A stretch of DNA of 51,152 nucleotides. Origin: Clostridiales bacterium DTU064 (GTDB lineage: Bacteria > Bacillota > Clostridia > Oscillospirales > CAG-272). Made by a program: the position numbers and the translations under genes. Below the pieces are notes generated by a model. The model saw nothing but the letters and a program-made list of their open reading frames with translations. It was not told where the DNA came from and made no database searches. Positions 37,336 to 40,237 of the stretch are shown in pieces (the stretch's first letter is position 1; each line of letters starts with the position of its first letter). The stretch lies in NCBI GenBank assembly GCA_001513385.1, contig LFTK01000058.1:300-51451 (forward strand). The letters run 5' to 3'.

Positions 37336-38562
37336 TTAAAAATAATTGACCTTAATTTTTTTACCCATTTCCTCAAGACATCCGATTAGCTCCTCGACAA
37401 GCTTCATTTTTATGCTGAATCCGATCGGAAGATCCGGGTTTTGATGAGCAGGGTTTACAGCAGTTCCGATAAAGAAATTTATATCTGTTGCATCTTCAAA
37501 GAGCATACGCGCTACAAGCGAAGCTCCGTCTTTTTTATAGCTCCATTTTTCATATGAGCTGTTATCTAAAAGGTAATTTTTCGCATATTCAAGCACACGG
37601 CTGATTGTTATAATTCCCTCGGTTACAAGGTCCACCCCTTCGATTTCCGCTGTCGGCGGTATATCAGGATCGTGGTAGACGAGCTTTGTTTTTATAGGCT
37701 TACCGAGGTATTCCGCAGCAATACTCGATGTCGTACCTCCGCATATGATGTGCTTGCCTTCACGCGAGAAAAACAAAGACATCATGCGCTCGCAGTCGTC
37801 CGGGTTTCTGGGCGGCCCGATACAGATATTTATCTGCAAACGCTCGCGGATTCTCACAGCGCACACCGTAGCATCATCGCCTACGTTGCCGTTATAAAGA
37901 CGCATCGTTTCCGCTGAAAGTATCGTTGCAAGTGTTTTTGCCGTAAAGTTGGCTTTTGTGTAAGGTGCCATAAACGCCGCTATGTCTTTGCGTCCCCAGC
38001 CGAAGTTGTACGACACACCGACACCGGCATGTTCGATTCCGTCGCTTATTAAAAGATAAACATCGTCTTTTTCAAGTGTCAGTTCGGAATAGCGTATCGA
38101 CTTACCGTCGATTATCCTTGTTTCATACGGGAATTCGACCATTTTGCCGCCGCGAAGAAGTATTACACCGGGATTATCGTACTGTATGATACGTGTTTTC
38201 CCGTCAGATGAAATATGCATTATTGTAAAAGTCGAGTATGCAATACCCCGGACAGAGCAGACCGGCAGTGTAGCCGTAATTGTCGAAACAGCCTCAGACA
38301 GCGGAAGCCCCGACGCTATCATTGTTGATATAATTCTCGAGGTCAGTGTCGATAAAATGTTTGCTTTTACTCCGCTGCCAAGTCCATCGGCTAAAACAAT
38401 CACGGTTGACGTGTCATCCGTGCTGCGTACAACCTCAACATTGTCTCCGCAAAGCTGCTCTCCGGTGTGACATAAGGATACGAAACCGACATCAGCAAAT
38501 AGCTGTGCTATTTTTTTGTCTTTATTTACTTGTGTCTTGATCGTATCCGTCCTTATGTTCAT
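37336..38562 (-). CDS. SpoIIE/PP2C-family serine phosphatase with an unassigned C-terminal domain of about 165 aa
   Basis: 408 aa with CGDNVEV, LADGLGSGVKANILS, ISDGIEHAG and GDDATVCAV (PP2C metal-binding Asp motifs). AAGGAGA RBS. The 5' end overlaps hydS by 41 nt. Confidence 0.85.
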   Translation of the reverse strand: MNIRTDTIKTQVNKDKKIAQLFADVGFVSLCHTGEQLCGDNVEVVRSTDDTSTVIVLADGLGSGVKANILSTLTSRIISTMIASGLPLSEAVSTITATLPVCSVRGIAYSTFTIMHISSDGKTRIIQYDNPGVILLRGGKMVEFPYETRIIDGKSIRYSELTLEKDDVYLLISDGIEHAGVGVSYNFGWGRKDIAAFMAPYTKANFTAKTLATILSAETMRLYNGNVGDDATVCAVRIRERLQINICIGPPRNPDDCERMMSLFFSREGKHIICGGTTSSIAAEYLGKPIKTKLVYHDPDIPPTAEIEGVDLVTEGIITISRVLEYAKNYLLDNSSYEKWSYKKDGASLVARMLFEDATDINFFIGTAVNPAHQNPDLPIGFSIKMKLVEELIGCLEEMGKKIKVNYF

Positions 38563-40237
38563 TAATAATCGTCTCCTTGAGCTTTGATAACGCTATTTTT
38601 GTCTCCGCTGCCGTTTCGCCAAGAAGAGATGCAATTTCATGGACTATCCGAAGCTGACGCTCGACGACTTCGTCAGCAACCTCAACAGTTTTTCTGCCAA
38701 GCTCCTCTTTTTTACGGCGCTCTTCCTCGGCATCGGTGACATCGCGCAAAATACCTATCAGTATACGCGATTTCTTGTCATGAACAACTGTAACCTCGAG
38801 ATATTTTTCGTATTCGGGATAATAATTGAGCTTATCACGAACAACGGCAGCCCCTGACAGTGTATCGGTAAATGGAAGCGGATCGAAAATGCGCACAATC
38901 AGCTCGCCTAAAACATCACTTTTCTGACGAACGCCAAGCATACGCATGGCAGCAGGATTGATATCCTGTATTTCCATGTCTTCATTTACGACAATGATGC
39001 CGTTCGGGTTGTTTCTTACAATCGTATCAGAAAACCTCTCCGCCTTTTCCATCAGATAAGGCAGGCACATGCTGATGTCAGCCTTACCTTCAAGGACAGC
39101 GATAGCCTTTTCACGGCACGTCGGATAACCGCATGAACCGCAGTTGAGTTCATCTTCCGGCTTTGTCTTACCGGTAAGTCGCAGAACGTCGAGAATTTCC
39201 GCTTCTGTCGGGGTATATTTTTCTCTTGATATGTTTGTATGTACGGTCAGGAGCCTTGCATTTGATATGTCGTCTGTCGGAAAATCATCTTTTCCGGCAT
39301 AATTGACGATATCGCGGTAGTGACGAACAGGTGCGTTTTTATATTTCTCCATTATAGGACCGCCAATACAGCTTCCTGAGCACGCCGACATTTCAATGAA
39401 GCACTTGCCAAGCCCACCGGCTTCAATATCGTGAATCGCCGCTATGCAGTTATCAATACCTGACACCGAAATCCGTGTATATTCACATTCAGCCGGAAAA
39501 TCCATAGTCTTTATAATGCCACCGTCCGTCGGGAAAATACGCGCACGGCTGTCAGGGCGTCTGTCGGTTTTCTTTTCCAGTGTAATTCCGGACGCCGCCA
39601 TCATTGACGACAGTTCTTCAAATGTCAAAACGGCGTCAGTGAGACTGTCCTCAGCTTCAGCTTTTTTAGAAAGGCACGGCCCGATGAAAACGACCTTACA
39701 TCCCGGCATCCGGTGTTTTATATCAATGGCGTGCGCCGCCATCGGGCTGACGACCGGTGCAAGGTATGGAATAACAGCGGGGTGATATTTACGTATCAAT
39801 AAATTAACGGAGGGGCAGCAGCTTGAAATGAGTATTTCATACTCACCCCTTGAAAGCAGTTCCTCATATTGTCGCTTGACGAGTGTTGCGCCGACAGCCG
39901 TTTCCTCTGCATAGCTGAACCCGAGAGCAAATAATGCATGTGACAATGCATCAAAACCGACGCCCTCAAAATAGGCAGCAAAGGATGGCGCCACGCTTGC
40001 CACTACCGGTGCATCACCGGCTAAAAGCACGCGTACATATTCTGTTGCATCGGCTATCTCTTTCGCATTTTGCGGGCAAACGACAAAACAATGACCGCAC
40101 AGTATGCATTCATCTTTAATGACATGAGCTTGCCCCGCAGAGAAACGTATAGCTTTAACCGGACAGTTGCGTATACATTTATAACAGTTTTTGCAGTTGG
40201 ATTTTTTAAATCTCAAATATTCCTGCACTGACGCCAT
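38522..40237 (-). CDS. hydS: putative sensory [FeFe] hydrogenase (HydS-like, group C) with C-terminal Cys motif, PAS domain and coiled-coil tail
   Basis: Two CxxCxxCxxxCP motifs. Variant H-cluster motifs [16 protein letters not shown] and [13 protein letters not shown]. Then CGSCGYPTC and a PAS-like segment. The start is uncertain: ATG 40237 abuts AGGAGG, GTG 40228 has a 9-nt spacing, and the track TTG at 40291 has no RBS. Confidence 0.85.
   Translation of the reverse strand: [571 protein letters not shown]

Follow-up and report, generated by a model that had tools for sequence, protein, structure and literature searches.

A putative phosphatase-linked sensory [FeFe] hydrogenase, HydS, encoded in an adhE and HydABC gene cluster of Clostridiales bacterium DTU064

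Clostridiales bacterium DTU064 carries a gene, hydS, whose product resembles the putatively sensory type of [FeFe] hydrogenase. The window analysed here is the 51,152-nucleotide (nt) stretch from position 300 to 51,451 of contig LFTK01000058.1 (assembly GCA_001513385.1), and coordinates refer to that window unless another contig is named. A sequence-only reading of the window had proposed that the open reading frame (ORF) at 38522-40237 encodes a HydS-like sensory [FeFe] hydrogenase. As a putative assignment this is supported by the order of domains, by identity to the HydS of Ruminococcus albus, by the C3 label of that relative, and by low scores against models of groups A and B. HydS of the window would thus belong to group C3 (phosphatase-linked, M2f) and be of the same orthologue type as R. 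albus HydS and Thermoanaerobacterium HfsB, with a probability of about 0.78. Judged by sequence, it is a new member of an already known and very common family whose mechanism is putative, and it has the motifs usual for its clade.

The hydS gene and the domains of its product

The features of hydS are as follows. Here and throughout, HydS residues count from ATG 40237, that is, in the form of 571 amino acids (aa).

38522..40228, minus strand: hydS coding sequence from the preferred start, GTG 40228 (568 aa; stop TAA 38524-38522)
40237, minus strand: ATG, the alternative and annotated start (571 aa)
40238..40243, minus strand: Shine-Dalgarno sequence AGGAGG, read directly from the sequence, with a spacing of 9 nt to GTG 40228 and of 0 nt to ATG 40237
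40028..40216, minus strand: N-terminal ferredoxin-like domain, residues 8-70 (Pfam Fer4, Fer4_21, Fer4_10)
39356..40009, minus strand: H-domain, residues 77-294 (Pfam PF02906 Fe_hyd_lg_C, E = 1.9e-44)
39806..39826, minus strand: motif L1, SSCCPSV, residues 138-144; C140 corresponds to CpI C299 (proton relay) and C141 to C300 (ligand)
39656..39682, minus strand: motif L2, GPCLSKKAE, residues 186-194; G186 replaces CpI M353, and C188 corresponds to C355
39368..39394, minus strand: motif L3, EMSACSGSC, residues 282-290; S284 replaces CpI M497, and C286 and C290 correspond to C499 and C503
39065..39142, minus strand: C-terminal Cx2Cx4Cx16C site, C366, C369, C374 and C391 (Pfam PF04060 'FeS', residues 364-393, E = 8e-12)
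38732..39028, minus strand: PAS domain, residues 404-502 (Pfam PAS_8, PAS_9 and PAS, E = 2e-7 to 7e-6)
38525..38731, minus strand: C-terminal helical hairpin, residues 503-571 (AlphaFold2 secondary structure)

Where does translation of hydS begin? The minus-strand ORF at 38522-40237 translates as an open frame of 571 aa, and this ATG form is the version in the public protein collection. The sequence-only reading had pointed to the zero spacing between AGGAGG and the ATG and to the 9-nt spacing of the GTG, and reading the sequence confirms this geometry. Translation most likely starts at GTG 40228, since the Shine-Dalgarno spacing and the N-termini of homologues both point there: 38 of the 39 close homologues displayed start at the residue aligned with Val4. 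The leader contains a 15-nt palindrome, ATATCGgatCGATAT, at 40273-40287 on the minus strand, ~35 nt upstream of the ribosome-binding site; a 6+6 repeat within a 189-nt spacer could be due to chance. A search for the Rex operator TTGTTAAN4TTAACAA with at most three mismatches gave nine matches against 4.2 expected, none of them within the leader of hydS. A promoter and terminator scan, in which the number of sites came near the expectation from shuffling, weakly supported a promoter specific to hydS at 40449-40421, and an Rfam scan of the window found no RNA element near hydS.

The N-terminal domain of HydS, in which Fer4-family Pfam matches span residues 10-58, contains two CxxCxxCxxxCP motifs (C15/18/21/25, residues 15-26, and C44/47/50/54, residues 44-55), which are predicted to be the sites of two accessory [4Fe-4S] clusters. 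In 49 homologues, seven of these eight cysteines are listed as invariant, and C21 is also in that list. The H-domain that follows has all four H-cluster ligands, C141, C188, C286 and C290 (CpI C300, C355, C499 and C503), and these are invariant in 120 close homologues and in a distant sample of 130 full-length representatives at 32-53% identity. It is ~40 residues shorter than the H-domain of group A enzymes. In an AlphaFold2 model based on 49 homologues, the H-domain mostly scores >90 by pLDDT (predicted local distance difference test). Catalytic [FeFe] hydrogenases were the best matches (E ~1e-16) when the HydS model was searched against the PDB with Foldseek, and no group C or D enzyme was among the top 50 matches listed.

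Beyond the H-domain, the sequence-only reading had described an extra Fe-S site at CGSCGYPTC, a PAS-like segment and a helical tail, and all three were recovered. First, CGSCGYPTC and the cysteine that follows it (residues 366-391) match PF04060 and form the Cx2Cx4Cx16C site, whose cysteines are invariant in 120/120 close homologues and 130/130 distant representatives. M2f and M2e enzymes (groups C and D, respectively) have this motif after the H-domain as a common mark (PMC8163306), and the site is predicted to hold the extra [4Fe-4S] cluster typical of groups C and D. Second, the PAS segment matches Pfam PAS models and has a PAS-like fold in the AlphaFold2 model, with a beta-sheet core at a pLDDT of ~80; it also weakly matches the PAS domain of the Thermotoga maritima sensor kinase ThkA (3a0r). 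Third, the tail is a two-helix hairpin in the model, with a helix at 501-539, a turn at LLGET and a helix at 543-563, and it is conserved across the family. Indeed, by residue frequencies, no other part of the signalling half of HydS is as highly conserved as the hairpin. Its core (residues 517-557) is near-invariant in the 120 close homologues, with a mean top-residue frequency of 0.88 versus 0.76 for the PAS domain, and it is kept in the 130 representatives at <=53% identity, down to ~35%. After the hairpin, HydS of the window continues for 11 aa, an extension that none of the 120 close homologues shares.

What might the hairpin do? A PAS domain followed by a helical hairpin recalls the dimerisation and histidine phosphotransfer (DHp) region of sensor kinases, but the resemblance is topological only. 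A weak phmmer alignment places His533 opposite the phospho-His of ThkA. The codon for His533 lies at 38639-38641, and 118/120 close and 117/130 distant homologues have Gln there; this is probably a neutral Gln-to-His change in the window. The tail gave no HisKA match in Pfam even at E <= 10, and with His533 not conserved, a degenerate histidine-kinase DHp was rejected. The tail is treated here as a putative conserved dimerisation or docking element and not as a phospho-acceptor.

Family membership and active-site residues

The domain order of HydS (two [4Fe-4S] motifs, H-domain, Cx2Cx4Cx16C site and PAS) is the published architecture of M2f, or group C, enzymes (PMC8163306). Its homologues number >8000 at E <= 0.001, with nearly all of those among the matches listed being ~558 aa long and having the same Pfam set, and at E <= 1e-30 there are 830 clusters of 50% identity. 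Plasmid records searched by tblastn led to pRUMAL01 of R. albus 7, whose HydS (Rumal_3405 / WP_013483411.1) has the same full-length domain order and is 56% identical to HydS of the window over residues 8-560. The two proteins also share the Cx2Cx4Cx16C site and a near-identical C-terminal hairpin. Going by the citations in PMC5707799, PMC10838669 and PMC6776011, this match corresponds to the HydS studied by Zheng et al. 2014. In the supplement of Greening et al. 2019, Rumal_3405 is labelled 'FeFe Group C3' and the downstream hydrogenase Rumal_3407 is assigned to group B; HydDB defines C3 as 'phosphatase-linked (putative)' (PMC5037454).

A k-nearest-neighbour (k-NN) test was made with a small set of HydDB-labelled H-domain fragments from the same supplement, a set without C2 or D references. 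HydS of the window scored as follows.

C3, R. albus: 56% identity, 186 bits
C3, L. clostridioforme: 40% identity, 122 bits
Group B: 30-33% identity, <=89 bits
C1: 25-29% identity, <=54 bits
Group A: 22-27% identity, <=47 bits

As a control, HydA of the window fell with group A3. HydS is also below the NCBIfam cut-offs for group A (TIGR02512, 77 vs 406 bits; NF040763, 65 vs 765 bits) and for group B1 (182 vs 450 bits). The sequence-only reading had named placement in a catalytic group A clade as the outcome that would speak against it, and neither the k-NN test nor the NCBIfam scores gave such a placement. Two other memberships were rejected: group A, whose motifs read TSCCPxW / MPCxxK / ExMACxGGC, on the scores below cut-off and the replacement of both methionines that flank the [2Fe] subcluster, and group D (M2e, the type of TamHydS from Thermoanaerobacter mathranii), on account of a PAS domain and of Gly at the M353 position.

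How unusual are the H-cluster motifs? All of the motifs that had been quoted from the sequence are in place, both in HydS and in the neighbouring HydA (33262-34965), which has TSCCPAW (297), MPCTAKKFE (349) and EVMACPGGC (490). The substitutions that had been named for TmHydS of T. maritima likewise agree with the literature, in which Gly177 takes the place of M353, Ser267 that of M497 and Ala131 that of the relay residue C299 (PMC8163306, PMC10055695). However, the sequence-only reading went on to regard the retained cysteine pair of HydS as the sign of a distinct variant, and this does not stand. The pair is shared by R. albus HydS, whose motifs SSCCHSV / GPCVSKKDE / EMSACNGSC have the same Cys-Cys / Gly / Ser pattern, with His in motif 1 where HydS of the window has Pro. 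It is also shared by 119 of the 120 closest homologues, among which Gly is found in 120/120 and Ser in 116/120. Because this pattern is near-universal among the closest homologues and present in R. albus HydS, the "variant" motifs are ordinary for the clade.

Further afield, among the 130 distant representatives, Cys and Ala each occupy the relay position in 41 and Ser in 33; the M353 position is Gly in 117; and the M497 position varies (S 34, N 33, L 30, M 18). The commonest single combination is Cys-Gly-Ser. Published frequencies for group C are 17% Cys at the relay position and ~51% Gly at 353, with 497 not conserved (PMC10055695). Among the few labelled HydDB fragments, Cys-Cys is found in the C3 references, with R. 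albus HydS and L. clostridioforme among them, and is absent from those of C1. Loss of the relay Cys299 is often cited for group C and is not seen in HydS of the window, which keeps C140. This does not exclude membership of group C, because Cys occurs there in 17% of sequences. The equivalent of Ser319, S164, is also retained. For the equivalents of E279, E282 and R286, phmmer and MAFFT alignments differ by one register around a 3-residue deletion; among proton-pathway residues, only the C299 and S319 equivalents are therefore called retained. TmHydS and TamHydS, the sole spectroscopically characterised putative sensory enzymes in the literature consulted, are both without the relay Cys.

The gene cluster and its counterparts in relatives

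The genes around hydS are on the same strand.

43882..44565, minus strand: rex, redox-sensing transcriptional repressor, first in the cluster (NCBIfam NF003994, 279 vs a cut-off of 130 bits)
41192..43816, minus strand: adhE, bifunctional acetaldehyde-CoA / alcohol dehydrogenase (NCBIfam NF010378, 1381 vs a cut-off of 951 bits)
40427..41188, minus strand: small APH/RIO-fold kinase, or 'phosphotransferase' (Pfam APH, E = 1.5e-13; RIO1; Pkinase)
37336..38562, minus strand: SpoIIE/PP2C-family Ser/Thr phosphatase, 408 aa (Pfam SpoIIE, E = 2.5e-15)
33262..37323, minus strand: hydC (36832-37323), hydB (34968-36851) and hydA (33262-34965) (Pfam and NCBIfam)
32994..33257, minus strand: small thioredoxin-like [2Fe-2S] ferredoxin, ~87 aa, Cx4C...Cx3C, downstream of hydA

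The sequence-only reading had stated that HydS has no kinase, methyl-accepting chemotaxis protein (MCP) or phosphatase domain in cis. Pfam and NCBIfam searches found none inside the polypeptide, so none is fused; however, a kinase and a phosphatase are encoded by the adjacent genes, and the latter is the feature that gives C3 its name. The kinase gene lies between adhE and hydS, with a non-coding spacer of ~190 nt (40238-40426) before hydS. The phosphatase gene has its own AAGGAG site, and its start overlaps the 3' end of hydS by 41 nt. A Ser/Thr phosphatase gene is thus directly adjacent, as in phosphatase-linked C3 loci, and co-transcription is predicted. The phosphatase is 61% identical to the SpoIIE-family neighbour of hydS in R. 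albus; its AlphaFold2 model has a pLDDT of 82.8 and matches SpoIIE/RsbU structures in Foldseek over the N-terminal half only. The rest of the protein (residues ~243-408; 37336-37830) is a highly conserved alpha/beta domain of ~165 aa with a pLDDT of ~90. Pfam had no match to these C-terminal ~165 aa, and in the Foldseek search with the whole model the alignments covered the phosphatase half only.

Directly downstream of the sensor-phosphatase pair, hydCBA is predicted to encode a HydABC-type (A3-like) hydrogenase; the HydDB-labelled fragment nearest to the HydA core is of group A3. The ferredoxin encoded after hydA has a weak Pfam match (E = 0.018), whereas the matches of its homologues are clear, and it is 61% identical to the copy downstream of hydA in a relative (locus L006). 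A perfect TTGACA-18-TATAAT promoter-like site lies at rex (44634-44605). At the other end, just after a phosphodiesterase (PDE) gene, a strong bidirectional terminator-like hairpin at 32371-32399 has a 12-bp stem and T runs on both sides, and is likely the 3' end of a hydS-PP2C-hydCBA-fdx-PDE transcription unit. The genome has three [FeFe]-hydrogenase-type genes, of which a single one is hydS; a second HydABC-type cluster lies on a different contig (C42:5426-9280, locus L082) and has a NuoF-like gene upstream. The HydA of that cluster scores 879 against the 765-bit NCBIfam cut-off for 'NADH-dependent [FeFe] hydrogenase, group A6', while HydA of the window, at 690, is below it.

How widespread is this arrangement? 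In a survey of 80 related loci, counted wherever the flank in question was visible, a PP2C gene is adjacent to hydS in 72/72, a kinase is upstream in 48/68, and adhE is upstream in 28/54. One or two genes for thioredoxin-like [2Fe-2S] ferredoxins are directly upstream of hydS in all 76 related loci; the window has none there and instead has one paralogue after hydA. No further ferredoxin paralogue was found in the genome beyond the copy at 32994-33257. The phosphatase gene is followed by hydCBA in just 3 of 62 loci, and these three all come from the closest relatives.

The counterpart in R. albus has the gene order rex-adhE-phosphotransferase-fdx-fdx-hydS-SpoIIE-hydA2. It has in common with the window rex, adhE and the phosphotransferase gene upstream of hydS and the SpoIIE phosphatase gene downstream. 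There are three differences. First, the phosphatase gene is followed in the window by hydCBA, a bifurcating-type trimer, and in R. albus by the group B gene hydA2. Second, R. albus has two fdx genes upstream of hydS, where the window has none. Third, hydS and the phosphatase gene overlap by 41 nt in the window and by 8 nt in R. albus; together with the 11-aa extension of HydS, this suggests that the junction has been remodelled in the window. The R. albus order from rex to hydA2 fits the eight-gene cluster whose expression was reported to be 111-fold lower in a H2-consuming co-culture (PMC6776011).

Signalling, catalysis and the supply of H-clusters

How could such a cluster work? The residues of HydS would suffice for an H-cluster, two N-terminal and one C-terminal [4Fe-4S] clusters, and then a PAS domain and a hairpin. 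As in published relatives, an H-cluster with Gly and Ser in place of the flanking methionines would turn over slowly, equilibrate with H2 and so report H2 pressure. The redox or conformational state of the H-domain could then pass to the C-terminal cluster domain, from there to the PAS domain and the hairpin, and on to the SpoIIE/PP2C phosphatase of the overlapping gene. This phosphatase and the upstream APH-fold kinase may act against each other in setting the phosphorylation of a target. The output, together with Rex, would shift electron disposal between ethanol (via AdhE) and H2, for which this genome would use the neighbouring HydABC paralogue and not HydA2.

Several known systems resemble parts of this scheme. 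Group C and D enzymes bind the H-cluster and turn over H2 slowly (PMC8163306, PMC10055695). TmHydS, a characterised group C enzyme compared here via the literature, has the M2f architecture, PAS, the C-terminal [4Fe-4S] site and the same two methionine replacements as HydS of the window, and its gene lies near a HydABC operon, as in the window (PMC8163306, PMC10055695). It differs at the relay position, with Ala131 where HydS of the window has Cys140, and it binds an H-cluster with low activity (PMC10055695). HfsB of Thermoanaerobacterium saccharolyticum / T. thermosaccharolyticum, likened here by its description, is a PAS-containing [FeFe] hydrogenase whose gene is followed by a Ser phosphatase gene, hfsC (PMC5707799, PMC11837493), and deletion of hfsB raises adhE expression and ethanol yield (PMC5707799). 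The hfs operon differs from the window in having hfsD, for a ferredoxin-linked hydrogenase, and in having no adjacent adhE. TamHydS (group D, M2e) shares the two N-terminal [4Fe-4S] clusters, the replacement of both methionines and the Cx2Cx4Cx16C site; group D enzymes have no PAS domain and have Ser/Thr at M353, whereas HydS of the window has PAS and Gly. Finally, the regulatory [NiFe] hydrogenase HoxBC with the PAS-kinase HoxJ (Ralstonia / Cupriavidus) follows the same logic, from a slow hydrogenase via PAS to a phosphorylation switch on hydrogenase genes. However, its metal site and fold are unrelated, and HoxJ is a histidine kinase acting on HoxA, whereas the partners in the window are a PP2C phosphatase and an APH-fold kinase.

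A number of points weigh against a sensory role. To our knowledge, signal transmission has not been demonstrated at any step for any member of the family. The cluster encodes no phospho-acceptor, and Rex alone could explain H2-dependent expression of adhE. Reviews continue to describe the sensory role as putative (PMC8924675), and the C-terminal cluster of the group D enzyme TamHydS is not reduced by H2 (PMC13104023). A review counts loss of the relay Cys among the grounds for doubting a metabolic role (PMC8924675), and this argument is inapplicable to the R. albus-type clade, because C140 and S164 are kept. Lastly, formation of an H-cluster in this organism is in doubt, because HydE, HydF and HydG were not found in an assembly that is 90.8% complete.

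The retained relay residue leads to one alternative, that HydS is a working catalytic hydrogenase, for example an uptake or low-rate evolving enzyme that exchanges electrons with [2Fe-2S] ferredoxins or HydABC, with the PAS domain and tail only modulating it. The four H-cluster cysteines, Cys140 and Ser164 are all kept, the two accessory clusters could carry electrons, ferredoxin genes lie directly upstream of hydS in every one of the 76 relatives, and TmHydS and TamHydS do turn over H2, albeit slowly. However, both methionines flanking [2Fe] are replaced (G186, S284), the H-domain is shorter than in group A by the ~40 residues noted above, and the NCBIfam scores are far under the group A and B cut-offs. 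The fused PAS domain and the PP2C gene adjacent in 72/72 loci point to signalling, and the window itself is without the upstream ferredoxin genes. Restoring the relay residue in TmHydS (A131C) made that enzyme less active, not more (PMC10055695). A catalytic role is thus improbable.

Could HydS lack a complete H-cluster? The assembly (1.89 Mb, 152 contigs) yielded no HydG, no HydE and no HydF above the level of generic GTPases in a hidden Markov model (HMM) search, and none was found by tblastn with HydE, HydG and HydF from the same genus. Nor is this genome alone. Among 21 sampled genomes of the order, this one included, [FeFe]-hydrogenase H-domains are encoded in 21/21 and HydG in 11/21, so that 10/21 have hydrogenase genes and no HydG. 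Searches of three same-genus genomes that are 94-98% complete found no HydG or HydF, and all three maturases were absent from searches of five genomes of other families that are 90-100% complete. One of those five, 100% complete in 10 contigs, has HydS-like, HydA2-like and group A genes. Loss in binning is possible for a single metagenome-assembled genome but unlikely as the cause for all of them. The same puzzle exists in archaea and some protists, for which an alternative maturation route has been proposed (PMC11216029); a literature search tied to Christensenellaceae found no report of hydrogenases without maturases.

These searches count in favour of a second alternative, in which HydS is an Fe-S redox sensor without a [2Fe] subcluster, made by an organism without HydE, HydF and HydG, and reports the redox state of ferredoxin or NADH rather than H2. 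It would suit the missing maturases, the maturase-less complete relative with a HydS-like gene, and published Thermoanaerobacterium work in which HfsB is described as possibly responsive to redox potential. Against it, the assembly is incomplete and in 152 contigs, and hydF-hydG-hydE is present in 8 of 12 same-genus genomes; where present in relatives, the three genes lie together in a cluster on a 130-kb contig. C140, G186, K191 and S284, which surround the [2Fe] subcluster alone, are strongly conserved in the clade, and this would be unexpected for an empty site. Moreover, organisms without maturases can still make active [FeFe] hydrogenases (PMC11216029). An Fe-S redox sensor of this kind is as improbable as a catalytic HydS, and an H2-reporting group C3 enzyme remains the preferred reading. 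A broader proposition can be entertained tentatively, though it is on balance unlikely: that HydS and the two HydABC-type hydrogenases occur in a bacterium truly without HydE, HydF and HydG, which would imply either that bacteria, too, have an alternative route of H-cluster assembly like the one proposed for archaea and some protists, or a C3 Fe-S redox sensor with an empty [2Fe] site.

What are the implications of this locus? We know of no solved structure, signalling-partner interaction or phosphorylation target for the HydS family. The copy in the window introduces no new principle; it provides a sensor-phosphatase pair directly ahead of a HydABC paralogue and behind adhE and rex. Two aspects reach beyond the single locus. 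First, the R. albus-type clade keeps the relay Cys that is missing from both characterised sensory enzymes. Second, many genomes of the order carry hydrogenase genes without known maturases. Of the hydrogenase-like genes in Clostridia of the gut and rumen, those for group C3 HydS are some of the commonest, and the protein is presumed to adjust the proportions of H2, ethanol and acetate and thereby the supply of H2 to methanogens.

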